The translations under genes were made by a program, and so were the position numbers. Below are positions 5,535 through 59,149 of a stretch of DNA of 64,000 bases, piece by piece. The DNA lies in contig CALSSJ010000012.1 in the NCBI GenBank assembly GCA_943788985.1, positions 64,001 to 128,000 on the forward strand, given 5' to 3'. Source of the stretch: an uncultured Lentisphaerales bacterium (GTDB lineage Bacteria; Verrucomicrobiota; Lentisphaeria; JABSQK01; UBA12247). The notes beneath the pieces are model-generated. The model saw only the letters and a program-made list of their open reading frames with translations, did no database searches and was not told where the DNA came from. Position 1 is the stretch's first letter, and every line of letters starts with the position of its first letter.

Positions 5535-5595
5535 TGGCTGGGCTGGTTATTGATTAAAGTAGATCGTGAAGACCGTAAGTAAGATGGACCGTGTT

Positions 5596-7095: not shown

Positions 7096-7254
7096 CTGAT
7101 CATCTCTTTTTTGTGTCCGACGCAGCCAGCCCCGTTTCTCACGGTCCGACGGCGTCCGCGAAGCGCCTGCAGTTGACGCTAAAGCCGTGAACTTCTCCGC
7201 ACCGCTGCCCACTCGCTCCAAACCACGCCAAATCATGTTCTGTACCTTCATCGG

Positions 7255-24681: not shown

Positions 24682-24709
24682 ACTGTAGGCGCGCGGGCCT
24701 CGTGCGCAA
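24682..24709 (-). promoter_or_regulatory. Candidate promoter TTGCGC-N16-TACAGT for the gshB operon
   Basis: Hexamer match; position about 57 bp upstream of the gshB start. Confidence 0.55.
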
Positions 24710-24779
24710 GGCAGGTCCAGCGCCGCACTACCAAAGCGCTGCATGTAAAGCAACCAAAGCAAATCGAACTAGGACTTCT

Positions 24780-26729
24780 ATGGCTTATATCATCGTCGAG
24801 AACGGTGCCTTGCAGGGCCAGCAGTTTCAGCTCGGCGACGAGGCGTTTCTGATCGGTCGGCATTCGTCCTGTGACATCGTCCTGCCGATACCGGGGGTTT
24901 CCCGGAAGCACAGTCAGATCTCAAAGACGGGATCCGGCTACAAGGTCGAGGATCTGAAGAGCCGAAACGGGATCTATGTCAACGGCGTGCCAGTAAAGAA
25001 GTCAGCGCTGCATCATAATGATGTGGTGAACGTGAGCCGTTTCATCATGCGTTTCTTTGACCCGACGGTAGCCAAGCAGCAGGCAGTTGCGCCCGAAGCG
25101 ATCGTCCCGCCGGGGACTGGTTCCGTAAGCGGAACCCGCAGCCCAAGCGTGACGATGCCGGGGCGGAAGATGTCCACTCTATGGTTCGAAGACAGCCCGG
25201 GATTGGGGGCCTCGATGGCGCTCGACGCGACGCGATTTCCGGTCATGGCGCACATCGGGCAGGATCCGAACCAGGCGCGTGATTTGCAGAAACGGCTGGA
25301 TATTTTTTACCAAGTCTCGCAGGCGATGTCATCGACCACCGAGGAGGGGACGCTGCTGTCGCAGATTTTAGACTGCCTGATGGAGGTGTTTCCACAGATC
25401 ATTCGGGCCTATGTCACGACTGGCGACGACATGGAGTCGTTGCAGTTGCGGGCGGTGCGACATCGCAGCGAGGAAGACGCGAGCAAGCCGCTACGACTGA
25501 GCCGCTCGGTGATTGCAGAAGTGATGAGTCGTCGCGAAGCGTTGCTGATTTCTGATTTGTCATCGAGCGAGGAGTATTCGCAGGCTCAAAGCCTGGTGGG
25601 GCAGAACATCTGCTCGATCATGTGTGCGCCGCTGATCGCTCACGATGAGATCTACGGGATTCTGCAGGCTGAGGCCAACCTCGCCTCGCATTCTTTTGCC
25701 GGGGAGGACCTGAACGTGTTGGTGGGAATCGCCGTGCAGGCGGCGTTGTTTCTGCGCAATTCTAAGCTGTTGAACGACATCGCGCTGGAGACCAGTCGGC
25801 GTTCCCAACTGCAGCGCTACTTCTCACCGACGGTGGCCCAGCAGGTGATGAACAACAACCTGCAGTTGGGCGGCGAGATGCGCGATGGCTGCATTATGTT
25901 CTGTGACATTGTGGGCTACACGGTCCATTCGGAGGACCGCAGTCCAGCAGATGTGATCCGTGAATTGAATCGCTATTTCGGAATCATGGTCGGGATCATT
26001 CTGACTGAAAAGGGCACGGTGGATAAGTTCGGTGGCGATGCCATCATGGCGGTGTGGGGCGCTCCGGTTGCGATTGAGCAAGATGCCAAATTTTCGATCT
26101 CGGCAGCACTGCAGATGCAGAACTCTGTGGTCAGGCTCTCGGAAGCTAGTGATGGCGTGGGGATGGGGATCGGCCTGCATTATGGTGAGTTCGTGGCCGG
26201 GAACATTGGGTCAAACGAGCGGATGGAGTACACCGTCATCGGCGAGCATGTGAACATCGCGGCGCGGGTCGAATCAAAGGCCGCGCGTGACATGTTGCTG
26301 GTCACGGAGTCTGTCGTGCATCGGGCTAGTGATGAGGTGTTATTGGGCTGCAGCTTTCTACCGATTCCGCTGAAGGGAGTCAAGAATGCGGCCAAGTTGA
26401 CGTCAATTCGCGGCATCAGAACCGAAGACGGCTATCTACTGAGCATCCCAGCGATATTGAACGATCAGCATGGCAAGATTACCTTCTATGAGCCTACGGC
26501 ACGCGTGTTCAAGTTTGTGTGCCGCGGGCTGTTGGTCGCTGGCATCGGCTCGATTCGGCTGGAGCTGCCCGAAGAGAAGAAGAATACGGCCACCTATCAT
26601 GTCGAGGTTGGGGAGGTCACGAACAGCAGTTTCTACAGTTTTTCCTTTGTGGAGACCCCGCCGCTGATCTACAGCATGTTTAAGGAAGGGATCGTCCCGA
26701 TGGACGAGATCTCTTGGCGCCGCAGATGA
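24780..26729 (+). CDS. FHA-GAF-class III adenylate/guanylate cyclase
   Basis: IGR..SRKH..SRNG (FHA); SIMCAPL (GAF); FCDIVGYT, DKFGGDA, YTVIGEHVNIAARVE. Confidence 0.93.
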   Translation: MAYIIVENGALQGQQFQLGDEAFLIGRHSSCDIVLPIPGVSRKHSQISKTGSGYKVEDLKSRNGIYVNGVPVKKSALHHNDVVNVSRFIMRFFDPTVAKQQAVAPEAIVPPGTGSVSGTRSPSVTMPGRKMSTLWFEDSPGLGASMALDATRFPVMAHIGQDPNQARDLQKRLDIFYQVSQAMSSTTEEGTLLSQILDCLMEVFPQIIRAYVTTGDDMESLQLRAVRHRSEEDASKPLRLSRSVIAEVMSRREALLISDLSSSEEYSQAQSLVGQNICSIMCAPLIAHDEIYGILQAEANLASHSFAGEDLNVLVGIAVQAALFLRNSKLLNDIALETSRRSQLQRYFSPTVAQQVMNNNLQLGGEMRDGCIMFCDIVGYTVHSEDRSPADVIRELNRYFGIMVGIILTEKGTVDKFGGDAIMAVWGAPVAIEQDAKFSISAALQMQNSVVRLSEASDGVGMGIGLHYGEFVAGNIGSNERMEYTVIGEHVNIAARVESKAARDMLLVTESVVHRASDEVLLGCSFLPIPLKGVKNAAKLTSIRGIRTEDGYLLSIPAILNDQHGKITFYEPTARVFKFVCRGLLVAGIGSIRLELPEEKKNTATYHVEVGEVTNSSFYSFSFVETPPLIYSMFKEGIVPMDEISWRRR

Positions 26730-43546: not shown

Positions 43547-44188
43547 ATGAAGCTCATCATCTCGATCACCGCCATCTTCGCGCTCAGTGCGACACTGTTT
43601 GGTGCAGATATTGATTTCAACTCGAGCCCGCTGGGGGCCGAAGAAGTTCCGGGCTGCCAGGGGCGCTACGACATCGTCGAGGTCACGGAAGGTGATCACG
43701 CGCTCCGTGTCTACTCTGATGGCAAAGAGGACTTCGGCGGCGCACGCATCCCACTGTTGGAGGGAAAAGTAATCGAGAAGAACTTCAAGCTTTTCGTCGA
43801 TTGCCAGCTTACGACAGCCCATGCTGCAGGGCGGTTGGTGTCAATCGGGGACTGGAATGCGAACGAGTGGCTCCTGCGAATCGACGCGGTAGGCGGGAAG
43901 ATGATGCTGCGCGGGACATCGTTCCGGACTGGAAAGCCCGCTGACCGTGAGCTCTGTGCCTACAAGTCTGGCGAGTGGTTGCGAGTGGGCATAGCCGTGA
44001 ACCGTAAAACTGGCACCTACGATGTTTCAATTAAGCCTCACGATTCTAAGCAGAAACCCGTGATCGTGAAACATCTTAAGCTCAATCCGAAGGGGAAGGA
44101 CGCGGTCTACCTTGATACCGGGACTTGGCCTGGCCAGAATCCCTATGCGTTCCACCTCGACAACATCACCGTCGAAGTCGCCAAGTAA
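43547..44188 (+). CDS. Secreted ~210-aa beta-rich hypothetical protein (paralog 1)
   Basis: Signal peptide, SD AGGA; ends in jelly-roll-like LDNITV; roughly half identical to the next gene by eye. Confidence 0.8.
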   Translation: MKLIISITAIFALSATLFGADIDFNSSPLGAEEVPGCQGRYDIVEVTEGDHALRVYSDGKEDFGGARIPLLEGKVIEKNFKLFVDCQLTTAHAAGRLVSIGDWNANEWLLRIDAVGGKMMLRGTSFRTGKPADRELCAYKSGEWLRVGIAVNRKTGTYDVSIKPHDSKQKPVIVKHLKLNPKGKDAVYLDTGTWPGQNPYAFHLDNITVEVAK

Positions 44189-44252
44189 CACCGCGTCATC
44201 TCAATCGGCTGACAGCACTGCATCAATACAATTTTAGAATTGGATAGAAATC

Positions 44253-44891
44253 ATGAAGCTCCTTATACCTATCTCCATCGTGGCCCTCTCAGTAGCGAGT
44301 CTGCTGGCAGCAGATTTTGATTTTAATGACACGCCAACTGGGGCTGAACCGGTCGAAGGCTGCCGCGGCCGCTTTGACATTGTCGAGGTATCCGAAGGCG
44401 ATCACGCACTTCGCGTGTATGCCGATAGCAAGGATGATGGAGGCCGAGCACGTATCGCATTACGGGCGGATAAAGGGTTCTCCGGCAGTTTTAGGCTTCA
44501 GGTGGACTGCCGTCTCGCCAAGGCATCTGCGGCGGGCCGGCTGTTTGCAATCAGTGACTGGAATGGAAATCAGCAGTTACTCAGAGTCGATGCAACCGGA
44601 GGAAAGCGTGAGCTAAAAACCTCTAGTTTTGAAAATGGGAAGTCCATTAATCACAAGCTCTGCGACTACAAGCCAGGAGAATGGCTGACCTTCTGGCTGG
44701 TGGTGGACCGCGAGACGCAGACCTACAGCCTGTCCGTGCGGCCGCGCGGATCGAGGGCGAAGGCCACCATCCTCAAGGATCTCAAACTCGATCCGAACGT
44801 GAAAAACGCGATATTCTTCGACAGCCTGACCTGGAAAGGGCAGGGCGCATACGCGTTCGAGCTCGACAATATCATCGCCCGGCCGAACTAA
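44253..44891 (+). CDS. Secreted ~210-aa beta-rich hypothetical protein (paralog 2)
   Basis: Shares DFN, GC.GR.DIVEV.EGDHALRVY, AAGRL, DWN, GEWL, YAF.LDNI with the previous gene. Confidence 0.8.
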   Translation: MKLLIPISIVALSVASLLAADFDFNDTPTGAEPVEGCRGRFDIVEVSEGDHALRVYADSKDDGGRARIALRADKGFSGSFRLQVDCRLAKASAAGRLFAISDWNGNQQLLRVDATGGKRELKTSSFENGKSINHKLCDYKPGEWLTFWLVVDRETQTYSLSVRPRGSRAKATILKDLKLDPNVKNAIFFDSLTWKGQGAYAFELDNIIARPN

Positions 44892-44902
44892 AGGACTCAA
44901 CC

Positions 44903-45572
44903 ATGCCGCGAGCTGCCATGCTAAGTGGTATCGCCGTGCTGTTCCTCTCAAGCTGTACGACCACACCCGTGGCTGACCAGAGCACGCCGGAACCGAGGCG
45001 CAGATATGATTTCTGTGCGTCTGGCACCGAATTGCGCGCGAAATATCGGCGGTGTGACGCAATCCCGCCGGGAGACGTTTATCACTATCTTTGCCGCGCC
45101 TATGGAGAACTCCATGAGCGCGGACGACTTGCACTTTCTTGAGGAACAACTGGAAGTTCCGTATGGCCGGGGAGACGGCGGCTCGACTTGGCACCGAAGC
45201 TAAACGCCGGCCTATCCCGAGCGACCAGATCTTCTGGACGTCACTTACATTCGTGAGCATGGCGCCACCGCCCCTGCCGAGCGTAAGGCTCGCTGGCGCG
45301 ACAACGCCGCTTATTGGCGCGAGATGATTTTCTGCACACACCCCGAGTCTTTTTGCCCGTGGGTAGAGAAAAAGGCCGCGCCGTAGGGGCCATCAACTGC
45401 CGAGGTGGCACTCGAGTTTACCGCCTAGTATCTCAAAGAGACCTGGACCGATGCCGACCGCCCCCGGTACCTCGAAATGCTGGACGAGCCCATGGTGAAG
45501 CCGCGCAAGATTCGCGGCACGCCCACAGAGATTGCCATATTGCACGTCCAGACCTCAGACGGTCCTGTGTGA
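44903..45572 (+). pseudogene. Decayed GH86/beta-porphyranase-like lipoprotein (5' part only)
   Basis: Lipobox LSSC, one frameshift near 45000, then RNIGGVTQSRRETFITI..YGRGDGGSTW..CTHPE..RPRYLEMLDEPMVK with stops at 45201, 45384, 45426. Confidence 0.75.
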
Positions 45573-46011
45573 ATTCGGGCTTTTCTCTCGCAAGAGATAC
45601 GCTCCGAGAGTCTGCGTTTGGTCTTCGCCAAGGAGCGCGCTTTGATTGCCGCAGACCTGCTGGCTGAAATGTGCGCACCGTGCCCACCGATGACCTCGCC
45701 AGCGCTTGATTCCCGCCTTTCTGTAGCATGCGATTCGTCGCCGAAGCAAGTACCCCAGCGCATAGTAAGGAAGGCAGGGACTAATAAGTATCACGATTAC
45801 AACAGACGCGCGAGTGCTCTCAGGGCTGCGACACATTACAGGGGCATTTGCGCTGTTGGTCGGCACGCTGATCGTCAGCGAAAACATATCGCCACTCCAT
45901 GTCCGTATAAATTGCAGTCGCCCGGGCAGATACCAAGCGTAGAACCGTCGGAAACCTTCCAGACAGGAAAGTACACATCAGTAGCAAGTGCGACTTCCGG
46001 CCAACGGTCAT

Positions 46012-46072
46012 TTGACATTGGTGGACTGAGCACTAGCTTCCGCCAACGATATCCCGGTATTGAAAACAATAC
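46012..46072 (+). promoter_or_regulatory. Candidate promoter TTGACA-N16-TAGCTT and palindrome GTATTG-AAAA-CAATAC (possible IclR auto-operator)
   Basis: Hexamers at 46012-46039, palindrome at 46057-46072, SD TAAGGAGG follows. Confidence 0.6.
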
Positions 46073-46092
46073 TTTCCCCGTAAGGAGGCCTG

Positions 46093-46800
46093 ATGAGCAA
46101 TAGTGGCATGCCCGGGCTGCGGCGAGGCTTTCAACTTATGGAGTGGCTGGCGGATTCGCCTGACGGACTCTCGTTTATGGAGATTGCGAAGAAATTCGAC
46201 AATCTGGCACCGGCGACGTTGTCTCGGTTGCTGAAAGCGCTGCTTGAGGAGGAACTGATCAGCCAGAATGGCACGCAGAAGTATGTCTGCGGGACACGCT
46301 TTGTGACCCTGGCGCGACGGGCGCTTGGGGTGGAATCACGAGCGGAGATCGTCAAACCCGTGCTCCGTGAACTGGCGGAGGATACAGGCGAGTCGGCCGC
46401 GTATTTCGAGCAGATCAATGACAGGCACGTGTTGGTAGCAAAGCACGAAATGCCGAATTCGTTTCACTATCAGTCAAGCGGCTTCGTGTTTCCGGACCAA
46501 CCGACGGATCCGGTGCGCTGGGCGTGTGAGGGCGATGCCGCGGATTTTCCGGAGTTGCTGCGCCAAAAAGTCGGCAGCCAGGCAGTGGTTGCCGTGCACG
46601 ATCACTGTGCTGCCATGGAGAAGTTTATCCGTTTCGATGTCATTCGCATCGTGGCGCCCGTACGCTCGTGTGGGGGCAATGCAGTGAAAGGGAGCCTGGG
46701 AATTACCGCGATCAAACAGGATTGGTCGGAGACTGAGCTACAGCGCATGTGCGAGCGCGTCAGCGAAGCGGTCGCCACCTTGCGCGGCGTAGGACGCTGA
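46093..46800 (+). CDS. IclR family transcriptional regulator
   Basis: N-terminal wHTH (ATLSRLL), LRELAEDTGESA, VAPV..GSLGI. Confidence 0.85.
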   Translation: MSNSGMPGLRRGFQLMEWLADSPDGLSFMEIAKKFDNLAPATLSRLLKALLEEELISQNGTQKYVCGTRFVTLARRALGVESRAEIVKPVLRELAEDTGESAAYFEQINDRHVLVAKHEMPNSFHYQSSGFVFPDQPTDPVRWACEGDAADFPELLRQKVGSQAVVAVHDHCAAMEKFIRFDVIRIVAPVRSCGGNAVKGSLGITAIKQDWSETELQRMCERVSEAVATLRGVGR

Positions 46801-46826
46801 GACTAACTAGTTAAACAGGAATAAGG

Positions 46827-48346
46827 ATGATGAACATGACCCTCGGAAACATGCTAAAACTCTTGGCCCGCGACGATCCTGGCGACGAGTGCGTTTGGGG
46901 CACCGGCGGCCACGAAAGAGACCAAACGGCCCAATATTGTGCTGATTCTGGCTGATGATTGCGCGAAGAAGGCGCTGAGTTGCTATGGCAATACTGATAT
47001 TCAAACGCCGGGACTGGATCGGCTGGCCAACGAGGGGATGCGCTTCGAACACGCGCTGACGCCGAATTCGTTCTGCACGCCAGCCCGGGCAGCGGTGCTG
47101 ACCGGAAAATACTCGCACAAGAATGGGCTGACCCATTTGAACCGGCCCTTCGATGGTTCACAGCAGACGTTTCCCAAGCTGCTGCAGGCAGCGGGATACG
47201 AGACGTCGATTTTTGGCAAGTGGCATCTGCTGACGCAGCCGACGGGGTTTGATCATTACTGCGTGATGAAGATGCAGGGGATGGTGACCAATCCCATCGT
47301 CTTTGAACCGCAGCACGAATGGGTGGTGTGGGGCAAGAACACCCGCAAGACCTACAACAACGGCGGCCGAACACTGACGGGCTACAACAATGATGCCATT
47401 ACGACGGAGGCGCTCGCCTGGCTGCGCGAGAAGCGAGACACCGAAAAGCCGTTCTGCCTGCTGCTGCATCCCAAACCGCCTCACGAGCCCTACCAGCCCC
47501 CAAAGAAGTACGCGGATTTCCTGAAGGATGTGACGATTCCCGAGCCAGCTACCTTGCTGGATGACCACAAGGGCCGGACTCCGGAGGCCATCCGTGACAA
47601 GATGTCCGCCAACCGTTTGGTGCTGAAGCAGGTCTTTCAGCCGCTGCGCAAGAAGCTGGAGAAGGAGAACCCGCAGATCACGGAGGGGGAGTTGACGCGG
47701 GCGATCTATCAGCACTACATCAAGGGCTATTATCGGCTGGTGAAGTCGGTAGATGACAATGTTGGGCCGGGTGCTCGACTATCTGGCGGAGAGCGGGCTT
47801 GAGCAGAATACGCTGGTGATCTACACGTCGGATCAGGGGTTTGCGCTGGGGGAACACGGCTTCTACAACAAGCAGTGGATGTATGAGGCGTCGCTTCACC
47901 AGCCGCTGCTGGTGCGCTATCCGGGCGTGGTTAAGCCCGGGACGGTGCATGATTCGATGGTGAACCATGTCGACCTGGCTCCGACGTTGCTGGCGGTAGC
48001 CGGGCTGCCGATTCCGCAGGACATGCAGGGATATTCGCTGAAGCCCATCCTGGAAGACAAGGCTGAGAAGGTGCGCGATGCCTCCTATTACCACTTCTAC
48101 AACCATGGCGAGCGACTGCCGGAGATGATCGGCGTGCGGACGGAACGCTATAAGCTGATTCACTACCCGGGCATGAAGGGCACCTACCAGTGGGAGCTGT
48201 TCGACCTCAAGAATGATCCAGACGAAATGAAGAATCTCTACACCAATCCTGAGTACCAGGCGGTGAAGGCGCAAATGACTCGGGAGTTGCAGACGTTGAT
48301 CAAGGACCTGGATGACCCGGTTGAAGCGCCGGAATTGGTCCAATAG
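46827..48346 (+). CDS. S1 sulfatase (GlcNAc-6-sulfatase-like), frameshifts near 46870 and 47765
   Basis: RPNIVLILADD, CTPAR, GKWHL, KSVDDNVG, YTSDQGF.LGEHG, WMYE, GVRTERYKL. Confidence 0.9.
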
Positions 48347-48446
48347 CTTTTTGAAAGGCGCTTGATGATGGTATGCACAACGCGTTGATCATGAAATCTT
48401 TAGATTCTCTATGTTGCGTCTTCCGTACCGTATGGGACACAGCTAA

Positions 48447-48717
48447 ACGGCCTGTTGATTTAATCGGGCTGAAAGCCCAACAACACCTTAGCCTAGGGCA
48501 ACGCCCTAGGTTACCATTCTCCCAAAGTCGTACGCTGAAAGCGTACTTCACACGGCGTAACGAATTGGAGCGCAAGGAGTTGAGGAACGCGTTCCCTGCG
48601 GGTGTGCCTCCGGCGCTCAGCGTTCAACTCGTAGATTGCAGAGACCTGGGGCGTTGCCCCAGGCTACGATGCCAATGGGCTTTCAGCCCGCCAAATCCCA
48701 TTAAATCAACAGGCCGT
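48447..48717. mobile_element. 271-bp MITE with perfect 18-bp terminal inverted repeats enclosing inverted REP-like hairpins
   Basis: ACGGCCTGTTGATTTAAT (48447-64) / ATTAAATCAACAGGCCGT (48700-17); inner GGGCTGAAAGCCC / GGGCTTTCAGCCC and CCTAGGGCAACGCCCTAGG / CCTGGGGCGTTGCCCCAGG. Confidence 0.85.
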
Positions 48718-48827
48718 GAAGCGGTGAACTCCAACGGGCTGCTCCCACCCTTGACGCCTGACGGTTTCTTCCGGTCCGAAGCAGAGCGCCGCCTATTCGC
48801 TAAACTGAAAGAAGGAATGAAAACGCT

Positions 48828-51539
48828 ATGAGTACAATTCGTATAAGACTGATGTGCTTGGTCTCTTGCGCCGCGCTGGGGCTGCCCAGCCTTGGAGCGC
48901 CGGACCAGGAGGCGGCGGGCAAGCCGATGGTGAAGAACATCCTCTTTATCATGTCGGATGACCTCAAGGCCAGCGTGCTGCCGGCCTATGGCAATGGTGT
49001 CTGCAAGACGCCCAACCTGGACCGACTCGCCGCATCGAGCATGGTCTTTGAGCGCGCGTACTGCCAGGGCCTGGCTTGTCTGCCCTCGCGGCCATCGATG
49101 TTGCGCAGTATCTATCCCCGGGCTGCGGTCACCGCGCCGACCATTGGCGAGCATCTGCAAGAGCACGGCATGCACACGGCTCGGGTGGGGAAGATCTTCC
49201 ACATGGGCGTGCCCAACGCCCAGCGAGACGGCAGTAACGGCTCAGACGTCGCGGCCTGCTGGACAGAACGCCACAACACCATCTCGCGTGAGACCTTCAC
49301 GCCAGGGCTGTACCGGCTCATGAACCGGGGGATTGCCACACGGGAGCTGAAAGGACGCCAGGGCGCAGGCACAAAGGACCGCATGTACACATCCGTCGAA
49401 GCTGACCAGGAAGACGGCTCCGACCAAGCTGATTACATGGTCGCGACAAAGGCCATAGAGCTGTTGCAGCAACGAAAGGCCGCCGCCAAGCCGTTCTTCC
49501 TGGGAGTTGGATTTGTGCGGCCCCACTATCCCATGGTGACGCCGAAGAAGTACTTCGACATGTATTCGCAGGCTGAGATCGAGACTCCGCCCCAGGTAGT
49601 GGGGGACCGGGACGACATCCCAGCGGGCGGGCTCGGCAATGATGGCAGGGGGATGAACACCACCGAAGAGGGAAGGCGGCGCATGTGGCAGGCCTACTAC
49701 GCGTCGGTCAGCTTTATGGACGAGCAACTCGGCCGCGTGATCGCTGAACTCGACCGGCTTGGGCTGCGCGATACCACCGCGATCGTGTTCACCACCGACC
49801 ATGGCTACCACCTTGGCGAGCACGGCTTCTGGCAGAAGGTCAACCTGCACGAAGAGGTGGCCCGGGTTCCGCTCATGGTCAGCGCGCCGGGCATGAAGCC
49901 AGGCCGGACCCAATCGCTGGTTGAGCTGGTGGATCTTTACCCGACCTGCAGCGATTTGCTGGGACTGCCGATCCCGGCGGCCCTGCAGGGCAAGAGTCTG
50001 GCGCGGATCCTGCGGGATCCGGCGGCAAGCGTGCGAGACACCGCTCTGTCGGTCCATCACACCCGTCCCTACGCCGCCATCCGGGCGGCGGACTGGCACT
50101 ACATGAACTACGGGGACGAGGGCGAAGAACTCTACGACATGACCAAAGACCCGCATCAATATACCAATGCAGTCACTGACGCGGAGTATGCGCCGCTGCT
50201 CAAGAAGGCGCGAGCCGCGTTCCAGGCACGGATCGAGGAAGCGGGTCTGAAGCCGCCTCGTCGGGCTACAGCCCGAGCCCGGAAAAAGCCTGCTGCGGCA
50301 AAAGCGTCACAGGGTCAACCCAACATCATTCTAATCATGGCCGATGATATGGGCTACGAGTGTGTTAGAGCCAATGGCGGGACGTCCTTCCAGACGCCAG
50401 CGCTCGATGCCCTGGCCAAGACGGGTGTCCGCTTTGAGCATTGTTATTCCCAGCCGCTCTGCACGCCGTCCAGGGTGCAGATCATGACTGGGATCTACAA
50501 TGTGCGCAACTATGTGAAATTCGGTGTGTTGGACCGGAAGCAAAGGACCTTTGCACATGCGTTGAAGGCGGCGGGCTACGCTACCTGCATCGCTGGCAAG
50601 TGGCAGCTTGGCAATGAGGGCGATGCCCCCCAGCACTTTGGCTTTGACGAGTCCTGCCTGTGGCAGCATACGCGGGGCGCCAGAGACAAGAAGAAGCGCG
50701 ATACGCGCTATCCCAATCCTCACGTGGAAGTGAACGGCAAACCCGTCGATTACACGAATGGGGAGTATGGCCCGGATGTGGTCTCGGATTTCCTGTGCGA
50801 GTTCATGGCCCGAAACAAGAACAAGCCCTTTCTGGCCTATTATCCGATGATCTTGCCCCACAATCCCTTTGTCCCGACCCCAGACAGCAAGGACCCAAAA
50901 TGCCGCGACAACCAGACAAACTTCCAGGATATGGTGGCCCACATCGACAAGGTGGTCGGCAAGGTCACCGCCAAGCTGGATGCGCTGGATATCCGCGAGA
51001 ATACGCTGGTGCTGTTTACCGGTGACAACGGCACTGCCGGGGCCATTTGGGCGCAGTTGAATGGCCGGAAGGTCCAGGGGGGCAAGGGAAAGATGACCGA
51101 TGCAGGCACCCGTGTTCCCCTGATTGCGAACTGGCCTGGCACCATTCCCGAAGGGCGAGTACTCGACGACCTGGTCGATTTTAGCGACTTCCTACCGACC
51201 CTCTGCGACGCTGTGGGGATTTCGGCGCCGCCCGTACCGAAGCTGGATGGCCGGAGTTTTCTGCCCCAGCTCAAAGGACAGCCCGGCGCTCCCCGGGACT
51301 GGGCCTACTGCTGGTACCTGTCGAAGAAGAAGACTGTGGAGGAGTGGGCCCGAACCCAGCGCTACAAGCTCTACCGCACAGGCAAGTTCTACGACATCAG
51401 CAAGGACGCTCTCGAAAAGACGCCCCTGAAGAAGCTATCGCCAGAGGCGCAGCAAGCACGGACCACGCTGCAGCAGGCCCTGGATCAATACCAAGGTGTC
51501 AGGCCGGCTGCGCTTGCTGTTCCCGCAGGAGAGAAGTGA
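48828..51539 (+). CDS. Tandem double S1 sulfatase (iduronate-2-sulfatase-like + arylsulfatase-like)
   Basis: Domain 1 KNILFIMSDD, CLPSR, GKIFH, DHGYHLGEH; Lys/Ala/Arg linker; domain 2 PNIILIMADD, CTPSR, GKWQL, GDNG. Confidence 0.92.
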   Translation: MSTIRIRLMCLVSCAALGLPSLGAPDQEAAGKPMVKNILFIMSDDLKASVLPAYGNGVCKTPNLDRLAASSMVFERAYCQGLACLPSRPSMLRSIYPRAAVTAPTIGEHLQEHGMHTARVGKIFHMGVPNAQRDGSNGSDVAACWTERHNTISRETFTPGLYRLMNRGIATRELKGRQGAGTKDRMYTSVEADQEDGSDQADYMVATKAIELLQQRKAAAKPFFLGVGFVRPHYPMVTPKKYFDMYSQAEIETPPQVVGDRDDIPAGGLGNDGRGMNTTEEGRRRMWQAYYASVSFMDEQLGRVIAELDRLGLRDTTAIVFTTDHGYHLGEHGFWQKVNLHEEVARVPLMVSAPGMKPGRTQSLVELVDLYPTCSDLLGLPIPAALQGKSLARILRDPAASVRDTALSVHHTRPYAAIRAADWHYMNYGDEGEELYDMTKDPHQYTNAVTDAEYAPLLKKARAAFQARIEEAGLKPPRRATARARKKPAAAKASQGQPNIILIMADDMGYECVRANGGTSFQTPALDALAKTGVRFEHCYSQPLCTPSRVQIMTGIYNVRNYVKFGVLDRKQRTFAHALKAAGYATCIAGKWQLGNEGDAPQHFGFDESCLWQHTRGARDKKKRDTRYPNPHVEVNGKPVDYTNGEYGPDVVSDFLCEFMARNKNKPFLAYYPMILPHNPFVPTPDSKDPKCRDNQTNFQDMVAHIDKVVGKVTAKLDALDIRENTLVLFTGDNGTAGAIWAQLNGRKVQGGKGKMTDAGTRVPLIANWPGTIPEGRVLDDLVDFSDFLPTLCDAVGISAPPVPKLDGRSFLPQLKGQPGAPRDWAYCWYLSKKKTVEEWARTQRYKLYRTGKFYDISKDALEKTPLKKLSPEAQQARTTLQQALDQYQGVRPAALAVPAGEK

Positions 51540-52981
51540 TGATGACGAAGTGCTTGTGGGGCGCGGCATTGATCCTGGCTGGTGTGCTCAGCAGTGCTGC
51601 GGAGTCCGCAGCGCCAGCCAAGCCCAATATTGTCATCATCCTCGCCGATGACCTGGGCTACGGAGATTGCAGCTACAACAATCCGGACTCGAAGATTCAC
51701 ACACCGCACATTGACCGGCTGGCAAAAGAGGGGCTACGCTTCAGCGATGCCCATTCTGCTGCCGCTACCTGCACGCCCTCGCGGTATGGTCTGCTCACTG
51801 GCATTAATCCCGCCAGGACCGGGGTGAGAAACACGCTGCTGAAAAAGGGCAAGCCCATCATCGACGAGCAGGAGACCACGATCGCGGCCCTGCTGAAACG
51901 CCAGGGCTACTCCACCCAGATGGTAGGCAAGTGGCATCTGGGCTTCGACATGGAGATGTCAGGAAAGAGACCGGAGTTCGATTTTTCCCGACCGCTGACC
52001 GGCGGGCCGCTGGATCGCGGATTCGATGCGTTCTTCGGCATTCATTCATCCCCGGGCTCCCAGCCGTATTTCTATATCGACGGTCGCGCTCCTGTTGCGG
52101 CACCGACCAAGATGAGCTCTGGTTCCTCTGGCCGGCAGGGCAAGAAGACTTCTTGGGTCAAGGGGAAAATAGCCCCCGGCTATGAGCATGAGGCGGTTGC
52201 TCCCCACCTCTGTGACAAAGCGGTAGAGATGATTCACGACCATGCCGCAGCGCCGAAAGGCAAGCCGCTGTTTCTCTATTATGCGTTCAGCTCCCCCCAC
52301 GCTCCCTGGCTGCCCAGCCAAGAATTTATCGGGAAAAGCGGCGTAGGAATCTACGGGGATTTCGTGGTGCAGCTTGATCATGAAGTCGGCCGGATTCAGC
52401 AGGCGCTCCGAGATACGGGTCTGGACCAGGATACCCTTCTTATCTTCACCAGCGACAACGGCCCGAGTTCGCATGCCGCCCAGGATAGTGAAGGGGCCGG
52501 GCATGCCGTTGCAGGCGTCTTTCGCGGGGGGAAAGCCTTCGCCTATGAGGGCGGGCATCGTGTGCCGTTCATCGCCACCTGGCCTGGCAGCATCCCAGCC
52601 GGGAGCGTGACGGAAAGCACCATTAATTTGACGGATGTTTTCGCGACACTGGCAGACCTGCTGCAGCTCGATGGCCCGCACGCCTGTCCCAGCATCACCG
52701 GTGACAGTCACAGTTTCCTGGCCGCTTTGCTCGAGCCCGGAAAGCGCGCGCCCCGTCCGCCCATGGTGAATACGCTGGACTGCATCCGCATCGACGATTG
52801 GAAGCTGGTGCACCCCGGGAGAGGGCGAGGCCCCAGCGAAACCAATGTCTCGAAGTTCAAGCTGTTCAATCTCGCCAATGACCTGGCCGAAGAACAGGAT
52901 CTAGCGGCGCAGAATCCGGAGAAGCTGAAGCGCCTCTATCGGCACTACAAGGGGTTCATAGGCGAGCGGAAGCTGAAGTAA
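51539..52981 (+). CDS. S1 sulfatase (arylsulfatase A-like)
   Basis: KPNIVIILADDLG, CTPSR, GKWHL, TSDNG, EGGHRVPF; start MMTKCLW. Confidence 0.95.
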   Translation: MMTKCLWGAALILAGVLSSAAESAAPAKPNIVIILADDLGYGDCSYNNPDSKIHTPHIDRLAKEGLRFSDAHSAAATCTPSRYGLLTGINPARTGVRNTLLKKGKPIIDEQETTIAALLKRQGYSTQMVGKWHLGFDMEMSGKRPEFDFSRPLTGGPLDRGFDAFFGIHSSPGSQPYFYIDGRAPVAAPTKMSSGSSGRQGKKTSWVKGKIAPGYEHEAVAPHLCDKAVEMIHDHAAAPKGKPLFLYYAFSSPHAPWLPSQEFIGKSGVGIYGDFVVQLDHEVGRIQQALRDTGLDQDTLLIFTSDNGPSSHAAQDSEGAGHAVAGVFRGGKAFAYEGGHRVPFIATWPGSIPAGSVTESTINLTDVFATLADLLQLDGPHACPSITGDSHSFLAALLEPGKRAPRPPMVNTLDCIRIDDWKLVHPGRGRGPSETNVSKFKLFNLANDLAEEQDLAAQNPEKLKRLYRHYKGFIGERKLK

Positions 52982-53022
52982 GATGATCAGACCGCTACCA
53001 CATATTCTGCAGGAATCCCGTT

Positions 53023-54826
53023 ATGTTTAGCTTCACCTGCCCTCATTGCCAGGAAGTTCTTGAGCAGGAAGAGGACTACACGGGCAGTAAAGTCCGATGT
53101 TACGCGTGTGGCGAGAAATTCATCGTCGCGATCGACAATGATTGCGCGCCTGAACCTGCCTTGCCTCAGACACCAGCTGTTCGGTCAAGGCCAAGACCGA
53201 AACGAAGAAGTGGCCAGAGGGCTACGTCACGATCACTCCCAGAGAGAACACGACGGCCTAGCCGGAAACCAGTGCAGGCTCCCAAGAAGCCGCCAGCAAA
53301 GCGCCCCAAATTCATCTGGGTCGCTCTCGGCGTCTGCTGCATTGGCATTGCTGCGATGGTGATTTCCTCGAGCAAGACAAACACTTCGGCTCGCAGCACA
53401 AGTGCTTTGAGCAAATCAGCTGGCGACCCCAAGAAAACGGCAATGGTGGAACCCGAAGCTGTCGTGAACGGTGCCGAGGAAGAACCTTCTACCCCAGTGC
53501 AGGTAGAGCCAATCTCGGACGAAAGCCAAGTATTTACCTTCAAGGGAAAGCTCGTGGGCTGGAAGCACGAGACGAAGCATCCGAATACACTGCGGTTCGA
53601 CCTGCTGGGCTATAAGGACGATGGATCGGGTAAAATGCGCTTTCCGTCAGCAGGGGATGCCATCAAGGGCATAAACCTCGAGGGGTTCGTAGATACCTAT
53701 GTCCGGGTGGGCTTCAGGGGATGCTATGACGACACAGGCAACAAGATCTATACAGAGAAGATTTTGGACATTGAGGAGCTTGAGGCCGCAGAACTGAAGG
53801 CGTACCTGGCTGATATAGAGGAAACAGTCTGACCCGCGTGTTTGATCCTTCCCCCAACGCCTTGGCCTTTTCGGGGACCTGGGGACCGCGCATGTCGGAT
53901 TCCGTCGGCGATGCAGCCCGATGAGCTGAAACACTTCAAGGTAGGCGAGTTTGCGGCGCAGATTTCCCAACTGACGACTGCCTCCTACGTGATGGTCAAC
54001 GTCACCCAACCTGCGCATGGCAATTTTCTTCACCGGGCCGCATCCTGAACCTGGCAGAATCCCTTAAGTTGGCAAAGCCAGTATTTCCGACCCGGGATGT
54101 GCTGGGAGAGGTGTTGGAGGCAATTGCGAACGCCAACAAGAAGGCCTTGGTGTACTTTGCTGCCGAAGGGTTTCACGCCCACGGCAATGGCAGCAGTCGT
54201 GCCCCCTGGGACAGGCATGTGTAAATCATTGGGCATGACGCATGATGACGCCACTGGTGAGCTCCTGGTCGGGTATTACGCAAAGAGATACAAGACCAAG
54301 ATTCACGGTTGGTGGTTTGACGGTTCAGGCGCGTTGGACAGCCAGGAAAGACTTGCCTGGCGCAAGCTGGTGCGTGCCGAAAACCCCAAGGCGATCGTGG
54401 TCTTCAATCGCATGGCCGGTCCGCCATTTCGGTCGACTGCCCTAGTGCGATTTCTTTGGTGGGCATCCTACCCCCCAGATCCGTGCATAAGTTCTGGGAC
54501 ATGGTCAACCTGCCCATGATAGAGGCGCTCGAGGCGGGGGCTTGGATGGATCCGCAAGGCAATCCAGTTGAGCAACCAGGAAGCGGCGCCCCTGGGGCAT
54601 GTGTTCATTGGGCATGCAGGACCGCTGGAATTTTGGCAAATGTGCCTTCCCGCCTGATCAGGCTGTTGACTGGACGACACGGGTACTCGCAGCGGGCGGG
54701 ATGTACACCTGGCATGCCCCGCGAAGCGGATCCGCAATGGCAAGACAGCAGTTTAAGCTGCTACTCAAGATCAACAACGCAGTAAAACGCGCGAGAGGCG
54801 ATCAGGGGACCATCAAACAGAAATAA
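53023..54826 (+). CDS. Zn-ribbon + TM + unknown domain + GH107-like endo-fucanase domain; many frameshifts after 53825
   Basis: CPHC..CYAC, basic/Pro linker, TM FIWVALGVCCIGIAAMVI; reconstructed FRGTWG, VMVNVTQPAHG, KKALVYF, RYKTKIHGWWFD, DFFGGHPTP, HVF.GMQDRW, GGMYTW. Confidence 0.65.
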
Positions 54827-55032
54827 CGGACGCATCGCGCCGAACAGCATCAAGGTTCTGAGATCAGTGGCAGGAGTTTCTTATCCACGGCAGCGCTGAC
54901 GGGAGGCGCACGGGAGCACGCCAGAAGCTGATTTTTTTAGGTTTGCGAGGCAGGAACTCACGTCTTCACTCAAGGCTTTGCGGATTGTACACCTCAAGTC
55001 GCACTCGAAGGACTTCCATGAGTAAAAGAGGG

Positions 55033-55099
55033 GTAGCTTGGCTCTCTGAGCCGAGCCGCGGTGTGCTATGGGGGACGCGGGTCAGAGACCCAACGCTAC
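55033..55099. repeat. REPIN-like inverted pair with GTAG ends
   Basis: GTAGCTTGGCTCTCTGAGCC ... GGGTCAGAGACCCAACGCTAC. Confidence 0.55.
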
Positions 55100-55207
55100 T
55101 TCTTCGGGGATGTCACGCGGGCTGGAGCCGGAGATGCACGGCCGTCACGGTGGGGGCGGTTCCGAATGATGCCCTTCTTGCACTCATGGGGGATGCATTG
55201 TTGCGCG

Positions 55208-55235
55208 TTGTGGCCTTAACTTTTTCGGGTACTAT
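55208..55235 (+). promoter_or_regulatory. Candidate promoter TTGTGG-N16-TACTAT
   Basis: Hexamer match about 70 bp upstream of the esterase start. Confidence 0.45.
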
Positions 55236-55304
55236 GCTGTGACGTCGACGTTTCCCGCGGACGCCCGCTACTCCCACCACTATCACCAACAGAAAAGATA
55301 TCCA

Positions 55305-56938
55305 ATGAAGCCACTGCATCTGCTTGTCACCTTGATCACCACGCTCTCCCTCACCAGCCTGGCCGACGTGAGGCCAGCGAAACTGTTTTCCGACCACATG
55401 GTGATTCAGCGCGAGACCCAGGCCCCGGTCTGGGGCTGGGCAGATCCCGGGGAAACGGTCACGGTGACCGGCGACTGGGGGGCGTCGGCAACCACGACGG
55501 CAGATGCCGTTGGCAAGTGGAAACTGAAGCTTCAGACGCCCGCTGCCGGAGGGCCGCCACGCCATTTCGATCCAGGGCCGCAATACAGTGGGCATCAAGA
55601 ATGTGCTCGTGGGAGAGGTGTGGCTGTGCTCGGGGCAGTCGAACATGGACTTTTTCGATGAAGATGCTGGCCAAGTCCAGCAAGCGGACCGAAGAAAGAG
55701 ACAAGCCGCTCGCCGACTATCTCAAGAAGGAAATGGAAACGGCCCAGGATGACCTTCTCCGCCAGTTTACGGTCCAGAAAAGGACCTCACCGTTCGCAGC
55801 GGTGGCGACAGTGAACAGGCGATTGGGCGGCATCGGCCCCGGAAACCAACCCGGAGTTCTCCGCTACAGCCTATTTCTTTGGGCGCGAACTGCGCCAGGG
55901 CGCTTGGCGTACCGTGTCGGCCTGATCGAGTGCGCCTGGGGCGGCACGCGGGTCGAGCCCTGGATGCCTGCGGAAGCCTTTGAAGACGACAAGACAATGG
56001 GCCGCCTATTTCGAGAGCAATATGTCTGCTCTCAAGGGGAAGGTCGCCGCCTGGGATCCGGCTCAGGTGGAGGGCGAAACACCAGGCCGCATTAAAGCGC
56101 TGGCAGGCGACCAAGAAGCGCCGGAAGCCCCGAAAGGCGGCGGACCCGAAAAGCAGCTCGCAAGTTTCCCGCCACACGTCTTCAACGGCATGGTCAGCCC
56201 AGTTCTTCCCTATGCGCTCAAAGGCGCCATCTGGTACCAGGGTGAATCGAATGCCGGGCACAACACTGAAAAATATGCACGCAACTTCGAGGCGATGATC
56301 AAGGGCTGGCGCGCGCGGTGGGGCCAGGGTGATTTCCCTTTCTATTTTGCACAGTTGGCCAACTTCAAGGCCCCTCCCGCGGAACCAGTCGAACATAACG
56401 GCTGGGCATCTGTGTGCGATCAGCAAAGAAGAACGCTCAGCCTCACGAATACCGGCATGGCAGTGCTCAACGACATCGGTGAACCCAACGACATCCACCC
56501 CGCACAACAAGATGGATGTGGGCAGGCGCCTGGCTCTCTGGGCACTAAAGAATGATTACGGATTGGCGATTCCTGCCTGGAGCGGGCCCTTGTATCGGAG
56601 TCATGAGGTCACGGGCAACAAAGTGATCATCAGCTTCGACCATGCAGGGGCGGGGCTAATGGCAGGCACCAAGAGTGGAATGGACAATGCACAGCAGACC
56701 GAGGCACCGCTGAAACGCTTCCAGATTTGTGGCGAGGACCGCGAGTGGCACTGGGCGGATGCCGAAATCACCGGTCCAGACGCCATCACAGTCTCCCATC
56801 CAGACGTGCGCCAACCGCTCGTGGTTCGCTATGCCTGGGCCCAGAATCCCGAGGGGCGCGAATCTCTACAACAAAGAGGGCTTGCCCGCTTCTATTTTTA
56901 CCACGGAAACGGAAATCCCCGCCAGGGAACCTCGCTGA
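55305..56938 (+). CDS. Sialate O-acetylesterase (SASA/SGNH) family, many frameshifts
   Basis: [64 protein letters not shown]. Confidence 0.9.
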
Positions 56939-57185
56939 GCAAGGTTCCCACAGCACGATGGAAAGGAGAAGGATGAACGTCATGATCGCGATTGCGATGA
57001 TCGCAGCCACTCCCGCAGATGCCTTGGATGCGATTTTTCGCTTCGATGCTCTAAGTCCGGCAGACTGCTAGGCGATGGGATCAATCGAGACTTCGAGGCG
57101 TCTTACGTTGCGATCGGGCGCCGATATCTTGGGCGTACTCGCAGGGGCCGCAGGCTGGAGAGAGGTTGGAAGAGTACAGTAGTGG

Positions 57186-58059
57186 ATGAATGAGTTACGG
57201 GTTAGCAGTCAAGAAGGCGCTCCTGGGCTGGGATTGTGGGGCAGAGAGTCTTCGCTGCTGCCCTGGCTTGCGACGCTGCAGGCAAAGGGAATCAGCTACT
57301 CGTCGGCGCGAGTCGGCAAGAAGTGGCTGATCCTGGTTGATGGGTGCGATGCGGCGCGCGCACAGGCCGAGATCGCGACTCTTGAGGCGGAGGGAGACCT
57401 CTGGTTTGAGCCGCCCTTGGGGCCTGCGTTACCAACTGGCGCGGGCACGGTCGCAGTGCTATTGGGGCTGCTTCTGATGTTCTCCCTGACGGGTGCCTCA
57501 GCAGGACACCGACGTGGCTCTGCGGGCTGCCTGGAACAGCGGCGAAGCGGTGTGGGACAGGCGAGTGGTATCGCTGCTGGACGGCGCTGTGGCTGCACGC
57601 AGATGCCACACATCTAGCCGGAAACCTTTTCGGCATGGCGGTAGTTGGCTGCGGGTCTGCCAACGAAAAGGAGACGGCGTGGGCTGGCTGATGCTGTTCC
57701 TGTCTGCGGGAATCGCCAACGCCTGGAATGGCGCGTGGCAGACGCATTTGTCGATTGGAGCTTCGACCATGGTCTTCGCGGGATTCGGAATCCTGGTGGC
57801 TGCCTGGCAGGCCAGTGGGCGAGCGAGCTATGGGCAGATCGTGGCCATGCTGTTAGCATTGCTGGGGATCCTCGGGACAGGTGGTGCTCGGACGGACATT
57901 GGCGCGCACCTGTGCGGCCTTGTGTGCGGTTTCCTGATTGGGCGGGCGTTTGAGCACGCAGAAGTGGCGTTTGATAGCTTGCGGCAGGATTGGGCAGCGC
58001 TTGCGGTGCTAGGCTTGAATGTCGTAGCCTGGGGCGCGTGGGCGATTATGGCAGGCTGA
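57186..58059 (+). CDS. Rhomboid family intramembrane serine protease, frameshifted
   Basis: SIGAST (catalytic Ser), DIGAHLCG (His), LHADATH in another frame; multiple TMs. Confidence 0.8.
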
Positions 58060-58062
58060 GAT

Positions 58063-58201
58063 CAATATCCAACAGCCGAAGGCAGGCGAAGTCTACGAAT
58101 CTCCAATTCCCATCGGATCGATCGCCAATCCTGTGCCATCGATGGTTGGCCCTGCGTCTTCCCTTGGAAATTGGAAATTCCGTGTTGGCTGTTGGATATT
58201 G
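58063..58201. repeat. ~139-bp inverted-repeat element between convergent stops (possible bidirectional terminator)
   Basis: Perfect 15-bp IR CAATATCCAACAGCC / GGCTGTTGGATATTG plus heptamer-like TTGGAAA units. Confidence 0.7.
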
Positions 58202-58202
58202 C

Positions 58203-59149
58203 TCAGGCGTTGCCAGCCTCTTGGAAGCGCACGCGTGGGTCGAGCAACCCGTAGGCGAGATCGGCGATGAGGTTGCAGATCACGATGAAGGTTCCGTAGA
58301 CGATGACGGTGCCGATTACCAGCGTGAAGTCGCGGTTCAGGGCACTTTCGACGAACTTGCTGCCCAGCCCGGGAATGCCGAAGATCATTTCAACGACAAG
58401 TGAGCCAGTGGTGACGGAGGCGATCGGCTGGCCCGAGATAGCTGACTACTGGCATCAGGGCACCACGCAGAGCATGGCGCAGAATCACGATGCGCTCGGG
58501 CAAGCCCTTGGCGCGGGCTGTGCGGATGTAATCCTGCTGCAGGACTTCGAGCATGCCAGCGCGGGCCAGGCGTGCGATGCGGGCTGCGAATGGGAAGGCC
58601 AAGGTGAGCGCGGGTAGAATCAGGTAGACCGGCGCGCGAATGCCCTCATAGCCGGTCAGTGGTAGCCAGTCGAGCTTCATGGCAAACAGAATCTGCAGCA
58701 TCGGGCCAATCACAAAGGTTGGCAGGCTGATCCCGATGACGGCCAAGAGCATGGCACCTACATCGCGCGCGGAGTTTTGGTGCAAGGCGGCGATGGTTCC
58801 CAGAATCAGGCCCATTCCCAGCGCCAGGCAGAGTGCCAAGCCGCCGAGCAACATCGAGGCGGGGAGAGCACGAGCAATAATCTCGGTGACCGAATGGCCC
58901 TTGTGCTTGATCGATGGGCCCAGATCACCTTTTGCGAGGTCCGCAAGAAAGCAGCCGTATTGCACGGCTAGCGGACGGTCGAGCCGGTACTTTGCTTCAA
59001 GTGCAGCCATGACCTGGGGATCGACATTGCGGTCGCCTGAGAAAGGGTTGCCAGGCGCGAAGCGGATCAGAAAGAACGAGATGGTGATGAGGACCAGCAG
59101 CACGACCGGTGGCCTGGAGTAAGCGAACCATTGGCATAGCGAGCCACAT
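58203..59149 (-). CDS. oppB: Oligopeptide ABC permease, frameshifted
   Basis: APGNPF, GDLGPS, DYIRTARAKGL, HALR, IFGIPGLG, DLAYGLLDPRV. Confidence 0.9.

Follow-up and report, generated by a model that had tools for sequence, protein, structure and literature searches.

The stretch of DNA analysed here, referred to as the window, comprises 64,000 nucleotides (nt) from an uncultured Lentisphaerales bacterium (contig CALSSJ010000012.1 of assembly GCA_943788985.1, positions 64,001 to 128,000 of the forward strand). The locus in question lies on its plus strand, where an open reading frame (ORF) of 269 codons occupies 53023-53832 and is followed by about seven short open pieces, spread over all three frames, up to position 54826. 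A preliminary description of this DNA had joined these pieces into a membrane-anchored fucanase resembling glycoside hydrolase family 107 (GH107) and fused to a zinc ribbon. Do they make up a single gene, and what would its product be? The reading frames, intact homologues, a frameshift-aware alignment and contigs from public sequencing runs point to one gene covering 53023-54826, which probably encodes a single 597-residue bitopic inner-membrane protein with a C-terminal GH107-type enzyme. As assembled the gene takes up 1804 nt, ten of them spurious, and their removal leaves 1794 nt, that is 597 codons and a stop.

Homologues were sought with the 79-residue piece encoded at 54208-54444, a search restricted to longer proteins with a cut-off of E<=0.001, and 13 homologous proteins were obtained among 47 candidates. 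The top homologue, P0001, has 514 residues (its N-terminus is cut by a contig end) and is 99% identical across the query piece. Its overlap with the first ORF of the window begins at residue 84 of that ORF, and it then runs uninterrupted through all the frame changes to the same C-terminus; in the frameshift-aware alignment with the window it calls for ten 4-base codons, no deletions and only two residue differences. P0001 and independent contigs lack the extra bases; each of the ten frame breaks is therefore an assembly error, a single inserted base, with such errors concentrated in this region, and the frame is intact in nature. The joining of the short ORFs stands in so far as they form a single gene, with the correction that all the joins are single-base insertions and not mixed small indels. 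The peptides quoted in the preliminary description are likewise present, save that the text reads ...ALAFSGTWG and not AFRGTWG. What about the gene being 'hidden' from ordinary gene callers? This aspect is an assembly artefact, since other assemblies call the protein whole: the gene is missed in this error-ridden assembly only, and elsewhere the protein already bears the Pfam label PF26376.

The catalytic domain

The catalytic domain spans residues 269-597 (53828-54823, plus strand), over three frames of the assembly, as delimited by a profile search against solved structures and by PF26376 on the homologues. A profile built from 49 catalytic-domain relatives (A2) was compared, using HMMER, with the solved chains of the Protein Data Bank (PDB). 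It matched the GH107 enzyme Mef1 at 1.4e-33 (chain residues 20-373, in two stretches), MfFcnA at 5.5e-29 (38-391) and P5AFcnA at 6.5e-29, the whole domain being covered; the GH29 fucosidase 9pnj was matched at 3e-6, over some 80 residues. P0001 on its own gave 1.1e-13 for Mef1, 1.1e-10 for P5AFcnA and 6e-3 for a third GH107 enzyme, and the next match was not below 0.4. PF26376, which the Atlas output names 'Mef1', is precomputed on all 13 of the first homologues, P0001 included. Scanned one by one, the six downstream pieces matched no Pfam family.

According to Tables 2-3 of PMC10619423, Mef1 carries its nucleophile Asp187 in motif I (ERFKGLADGYWLDHV) and its acid/base His270 in motif II (VDFTSGHPTP), with Tyr128, Asn215 and Trp318 in the -1 subsite. 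In the window protein the predicted nucleophile is Asp431 (54319-54321), within motif I KRYKTKIHGWWFDGS (GWWFD) and aligned with Asp187, and the predicted acid/base is His479 (54464-54466), within motif II CDFFGGHPTP and aligned with His270; both positions are kept in 49 of 49 relatives. These are the two residues that the preliminary description had placed at 54319 and 54464, and its claim of likeness to GH107, with the repaired domain aligning at the Asp and the His, is borne out. The -1 subsite residues would be Tyr376 (54153-54155), Asn460 (54406-54408) and Trp532 (54626-54628), aligned with Tyr128, Asn215 and Trp318 of Mef1; Tyr and Trp are found in all 49 relatives and Asn in 40, the window protein among them. 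Overall, the likeness to the GH107 enzymes of known structure (Mef1 8BPD, P5AFcnA 6M8N, MfFcnA 6DLH/6DNS) extends end to end over the catalytic alignment with the key residues kept, and GHPTP in motif II is shared with Mef1. The differences from these enzymes lie in the cytoplasmic zinc ribbon, the transmembrane (TM) anchor and the middle domain of the window protein, and in motif I, which reads GWWFD here against GYWLD or AWCFD and has His in place of its first Asp. This replacement had been noted correctly before, and the position is variable in the clade (D 25, S 14, H 8, N 1, A 1; n=49). Judged by its sequence, then, the C-terminal 329 residues are a member of the GH107/Mef1 family with all the family's catalytic and -1-subsite residues kept, and would fold as a (beta/alpha)8 barrel. 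The catalytic family (GH107; Pfam Mef1) is already known.

How does this domain stand towards the GH29 fucosidases? GH29 (PF01120) is a distant relative in the N-terminal half of the barrel and a WxFD nucleophile motif is common to both, whereas the acid/base is His in the window protein and Glu in GH29. P0001 has no PF01120 match and a His instead of the GH29-type Glu, and on both counts is not a GH29 protein. The same genome holds three GH29-like paralogues, found with the A2 profile (C10:20657-21793, C11:203928-205340 and C31:50646-52211). These have WW[FM]D-type nucleophile motifs and DYTAGE, with Glu where GH107 has His (D..GGH), and they match GH29 structures, not GH107. Atlas clusters of their kind carry PF01120 and PF26376 labels, each on part of the members, and these small paralogues look like a group between GH29 and GH107. 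The window gene is the only His-type member found in this genome, which is 83.6% complete.

The domain could also be a membrane-anchored enzyme of the GH29/GH107 clan with another activity, either an exo-fucosidase for imported oligosaccharides or an enzyme hydrolysing some other sulfated deoxy-hexose glycan. It forms a clade of its own, far from the assayed GH107 enzymes, with single-sequence E-values of only 1e-13 to 6e-3 and weak PF01120 matches on two clade members; the window contains a GH86-like gene and other glycan genes, and a periplasmic, membrane-bound location suits work on oligosaccharides. We regard this as unlikely, because the profile matches GH107 better than GH29 by more than 20 orders of magnitude, the acid/base His is of the GH107 type while the paralogues just described have Glu, and no GH168 or other fucanase family appeared among the PDB matches of A2 at E<=0.01.

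Architecture and relatives

What precedes the catalytic domain? Residues 1-36 (53023-53130) form a zinc ribbon with Cys6, Cys9, Cys26 and Cys29, predicted to be cytoplasmic; the four Cys and Glu14 are invariant in six of six aligned ribbons. A basic, proline-rich linker follows (residues 37-96, 53131-53310; 13 Pro in 60 residues) and leads to a single TM helix, FIWVALGVCCIGIAAMVISSS, at residues 97-117 (53311-53373), which has a Kyte-Doolittle 19-residue mean of 2.47 and is the sole such segment. Beyond it lie a Ser/Thr/Glu-rich linker, predicted to be extracytoplasmic and without a family match (residues 118-168, 53374-53526), and a middle domain (residues 169-250) with a probable helix after it (251-265; together 53527-53817), a part common to the Verrucomicrobial clade. 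The 60 residues before the TM helix hold 18 Lys/Arg and 4 Asp/Glu and the 50 after it 5 and 9, a charge bias that, by the positive-inside rule, fits an N-in/C-out orientation with the ribbon in the cytoplasm and the enzyme facing the periplasm. The middle domain is kept whatever the N-terminus, as profile positions from about 144-175 on match P0014, P0016 and P0018. It has no match in Pfam, no usable one in the Atlas and no convincing one in the PDB; weak PDB matches to ribosome-inactivating proteins (E 0.001-0.02) were taken as chance. The same layout of ribbon, TM helix, middle and catalytic domains recurs in six complete homologues (P0004-P0008 and P0010) of 600-677 residues, and the ribbon layout is also present at loci L007, L017 and L087. 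The earlier picture of a protein of about 600 residues with a CxxC..CxxC knuckle, a TM helix and a GH107-like domain is thus close to the 597 residues found, and, as also described, the catalytic-domain head has no start or signal peptide of its own.

Zinc ribbons in front of a TM helix are known from two other proteins. In PMC5182065, ZitP of Caulobacter is described with a zinc ribbon (ZnR) at 1-37, a TM segment at 106-127, a periplasmic domain and binding to PopZ, and in PMC11135422 the ZnR of Myxococcus GltJ has Cys5, 8, 28 and 31 and binds its own linker and MglB. The window protein resembles both in its N-terminal ZnR (about residues 1-37), which a linker of some 60 residues joins to a single TM helix at about residue 100, in a C-terminal domain predicted to be periplasmic, and in a CxxC-x(16-20)-CxxC ribbon with similar spacing of the four Cys. 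It differs from them in that the periplasmic part is a glycoside hydrolase, not a DUF3426 or motility-machine domain. By analogy with the ZnR of ZitP and GltJ, the ribbon may serve as a protein-binding handle, and the FHA domain that replaces it in a Rubritalea sister (see below) points the same way. A similar ribbon, with 13 of 30 residues identical, also stands at the N-terminus of an unrelated 715-residue protein of this genome (L137, G000:C36:100918-103065), where it is followed by a linker rich in proline, a single TM helix and a C-terminal part of helical repeats without a family match.

Relatives of the catalytic domain are numerous. When 1.84 billion representatives were searched with the profile, 1370 matched at E<=0.001, of which 814 reached E<=1e-10 and 133 reached E<=1e-30. 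A sample of 300 other genomes from across the phylum gave 23 with a match at E<=1e-20; only G230 and G320 match closely over most of the domain, and in the remaining ones the match extends over the barrel's first half and is probably to GH29-like proteins. A tree of 49 catalytic domains, built by maximum likelihood, places the window protein within a separate, mainly Verrucomicrobial GH107 clade and the ribbon-bearing proteins in one group of 12 rows (support 88/78), nine with a ribbon, two truncated at the N-terminus and one (P0009) with a signal peptide instead; a core of ten rows has support of 98/97. Ribbon and TM helix recur in L033, a distant member at about 35% identity. The sister group combines a form with FHA domain and TM helix (P0013) with forms that have only a signal peptide or an anchor, and these sister architectures share more than 50% identity in the middle and catalytic domains. 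P0009, P0012, P0014-P0016, P0018 and P0019 carry a signal peptide or anchor alone. P0013 comes from a metagenome-assembled genome of Rubritalea sp. (L092:7176-9317); the FHA domain takes the ribbon's place before the TM helix, and the neighbouring genes encode seven sulfatases, a GH29 protein and a SASA esterase. Further away, the Planctomycetota-type members and the G320 protein (L140:7213-8502; Pirellulaceae loci L096-L100) have a signal peptide and an SHD1 (SLA1 homology) domain before the GH107-type domain. In Rhodopirellula sp. SWK7 (L095), a gene for a 1508-residue Ser/Thr kinase adjoins the GH107-type gene. Formosa sp. PL04 (L099:7905-13178) has three tandem paralogues, two of them with Big_2, CBM32-like and type IX secretion system (T9SS) sorting domains, in a row of T9SS-tailed proteins with a sulfatase. 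Such a tandem layout with CBM32-like domains and T9SS tails is the usual flavobacterial secreted form. Since related catalytic domains carry a ribbon, an FHA domain or a signal peptide or anchor alone, the cytoplasmic module is, as far as domain composition tells, an exchangeable accessory of a conserved extracytoplasmic enzyme.

Is the GH107-like domain an enzyme at all? A cytoplasmic ribbon or FHA domain, one helix and a periplasmic domain are the layout typical of signalling proteins, and members of a clade with more than 50% identity differ in which N-terminal module they carry. The domain might accordingly sense a ligand instead of working as an enzyme, with the whole protein passing a signal across the membrane in an anti-sigma-like or other manner. 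This is improbable to our mind, as all 49 relatives, every ribbon-bearing one included, keep the catalytic Asp and His as well as the Tyr and Trp of the subsite, and the close relatives with a signal peptide or anchor only imply that the domain functions without a cytoplasmic module. For the combined enzyme-sensor that the preliminary description had offered as an option, no positive evidence was obtained. A zinc-binding anti-sigma factor was considered separately and rejected: none of the genome's 14 Sigma70_r2 matches lies on contig C12 (286 kb), and no HxxxCxxC motif was seen by inspection.

Single-base insertions in the assembly

The ten spurious insertions lie within 53818-54607 on the plus strand and were located with the frameshift-aware alignment and the contigs of runs X1, X2, X7 and X19. 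One extra base falls in each of 53818-53821, 53828-53831, 53895-53898, 54022-54025, 54047-54050, 54219-54222, 54442-54445, 54470-54473, 54588-54591 and 54604-54607; judged from the surrounding bases, seven of them extend a homopolymer and the other three do not. For the comparison, contigs of one metatranscriptome and of three DNA runs, each of the three from a different study, were aligned to 52500-57500 (all public runs, used as contigs only). Independent contigs omit the letter at at least six positions of the gene (53821, 53830, 53897, 54222, 54443 and 54471), and every contig shows as many gaps as there are predicted insertions in the part that it covers. X1 record 1 (52500-54475) has seven gaps and one other differing letter in 1976 nt; X2 has five gaps in record 15 (52500-54212) and one in record 16; X7 record 24 (53968-54171) has two, and records 8 and 9 of the RNA run X19 have two and three. 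The stretch is present in 20 of the 24 listed public runs, which come from 11 studies, marine and estuarine, and include two metatranscriptome libraries. The best run contains 0.86 of the sampled words, roughly the cost expected from ten indels. That the stretch is nearly identical across runs of 11 studies speaks for a widespread organism. A genome-wide scan for ORF-poor patches did not flag the region; it is insensitive, as chance ORFs on other strands mask the breaks, and no inference was drawn from it.

The stop codon that ends the first ORF deserves separate mention. TGA 53830-53832 is created by two of the insertions, 53821 and 53830, and both are missing from the contigs of X1 and X2; the upstream ORF with zinc ribbon and TM helix is therefore continuous with the downstream domain, as had been suggested from a frame shift near 53825. 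P0001 reads through at this point, as do at least nine other homologues, and there is no separate downstream start.

The cluster of insertions does not end with the gene. It spans 53818-57400, with the ten described above and about 15 more in 55140-57373, and all twelve of the differences listed in it are letters that other contigs omit. The next gene downstream (55239-56976, plus strand), which encodes a SASA-family carbohydrate esterase (PF03629), is thrown into four frames by insertions, and the rhomboid-like gene at 57186-58403 is also fragmented. In the intergenic region, 32 bases (55108-55139) are skipped by contigs of three DNA runs, and X1, X2 and the RNA run X19 have an alternative joint that leads from 55116 back to 55033 across 20 other letters; the differences at 55033-55140 are either strain variation or a local misassembly. 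Further fragmented ORFs on the same strand occur at 43547-48346, where the pieces in 43547-46103 have no Pfam match, and they may result from the same kind of assembly error. In an assembly so rich in insertions, 'hidden' or 'broken' genes call for checks at the level of the reads.

Could the insertions be real, the gene being a decaying pseudogene in this strain and intact only in its relatives? The breaks are there in the window, and the comparison was with contigs of public runs and not with reads known to come from the source sample. Decay would mix indels with substitutions, however, and here the ten changes are +1 insertions without exception, with no more than two residues altered; the esterase gene shows the same pattern, with 15 gaps against nine other differing letters in X1 record 3 (55140-57373), and the contigs of three DNA studies and one RNA library, otherwise near-identical, all lack the extra bases. 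A pseudogene is, on this evidence, very improbable. A pair of genes, a small zinc-ribbon membrane protein ending at TGA 53830 and a separate hydrolase downstream, has the stop codon of the assembly in its favour and can be practically dismissed, given that the contigs lack the two insertions that create the stop, that the homologues are continuous there and that the catalytic-domain head has neither a start codon nor a signal peptide.

Genomic setting and proposed function

Three sulfatase genes lie directly upstream (46939-52981, plus strand; PF00884 and PF16347), the last one ending 41 nt before the GH107 start codon. One of them is split at about 47.75 kb (46939-47802 and 47753-48346). The ORF at 48828-51539, of 903 residues, has two complete tandem sulfatase domains; it may be a genuine fusion, or an indel may have merged two genes. 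Genes for LacI and IclR regulators and a GH86-like gene are also found upstream. The position of the gene among sulfatases resembles that of genes in fucoidan loci. In eight related loci, picked for their long flanks and not at random, sulfatase genes occur in eight of eight (one to seven each), GH29 in two, a SASA esterase in three and a pair of GH92 genes in one. A scan for promoters and terminators gave no promoter-like sites and two terminator-like sites, on the wrong strand, against 2.9 expected. Release of the enzyme by the rhomboid protease whose gene (57186-58403) lies two genes downstream was considered and rejected, no rhomboid being found in the eight related loci (ORFs of at least 150-200 residues scanned).

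A GH95 fusion, a GH29 gene and three more sulfatases are present in the first 18 kb of the window. The GH95 fusion (7255-12210, minus strand) has 1651 residues, with a GH95 catalytic domain and a right-handed beta-helix region, and is accompanied by sulfatases (4014-7251 and 14408-15907), a GH29 gene (15933-17705) and a LacI regulator; these genes are a second fucoidan-type cluster in the window. The protein of 675 residues encoded at 24702-26729 combines FHA, GAF and adenylate/guanylate cyclase domains, and FHA-based signalling is thus present in the genome.

How would a membrane-anchored GH107-type enzyme work at such a locus? The N-terminal helix would tether the enzyme to the outer face of the cytoplasmic membrane, with the long flexible linker and the middle domain in between. 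There it would cut internal alpha-L-fucosidic bonds of sulfated fucans (fucoidan) by the GH107 mechanism, with Asp431 and His479, and the adjacent sulfatases and the acetyl-esterase would act alongside it. The substrate would be polymer or large oligomers taken into the periplasm by 'selfish' uptake. PMC11685898 reports fucoidan in the interior of cells, both in a Planctomycetota strain and in free-living marine bacteria, and attributes it to a 'selfish' mechanism; a periplasmic tether fits this reported uptake. The zinc ribbon, finally, would place or regulate the enzyme from the cytoplasmic side.

Several points weigh against a tethered endo-acting GH107 enzyme in an intact gene and have to be set beside the evidence above. 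X1, the best DNA run, may be the source sample of the window and is then not fully independent, whereas X2 and X7 come from other studies. The ribbon matches Pfam models below their cut-offs (PF13717, Zn_ribbon_4, at E=0.037 and PF13719 at E=0.75), and the best full-length PDB match of a profile of six ribbons, the GltJ/AgmX ZnR (7zok_A), is marginal at E=0.003. The catalytic domain has no match in NCBIfam or in the copy of Pfam used, which does not include the PF26376 model. Its identity to characterised GH107 enzymes is low, and because the clade is separate from the assayed ones, the substrate, the linkage cut and endo as opposed to exo action are extrapolated. Moreover, all the assayed GH107 enzymes treated in the cited passages of PMC10619423 and PMC7698502 are secreted proteins with signal peptides, which makes an inner-membrane tether untypical for an enzyme attacking a large polymer.

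What could be gained by a cytoplasmic module on a periplasmic hydrolase? One possibility is that the ribbon, like the FHA domain of the Rubritalea protein, docks a periplasmic endo-fucanase to a cytoplasmic partner, so that cleavage is placed at the site of uptake or switched by cytoplasmic signals, for example phospho-threonine. This proposal is speculative and rather doubtful. Among titles and openings of abstracts, no published description of a zinc ribbon or FHA domain with a membrane anchor on GH107 was found. If the docking handle were true, it would mean a spatially organised 'selfish' fucoidan-processing machine in Verrucomicrobiota, controlled from the inside in a way that no glycoside hydrolase of marine polysaccharide loci is known to be. 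PMC11685898 counts fucoidan among the algal polysaccharides most resistant to degradation and names endo-fucanases as the step in its breakdown that is understood least. With a clade anchored in the inner membrane and bearing a cytoplasmic protein-binding module, an endo-acting step would take place in the periplasm, and the gene at 53023-54826 offers a concrete candidate for it.

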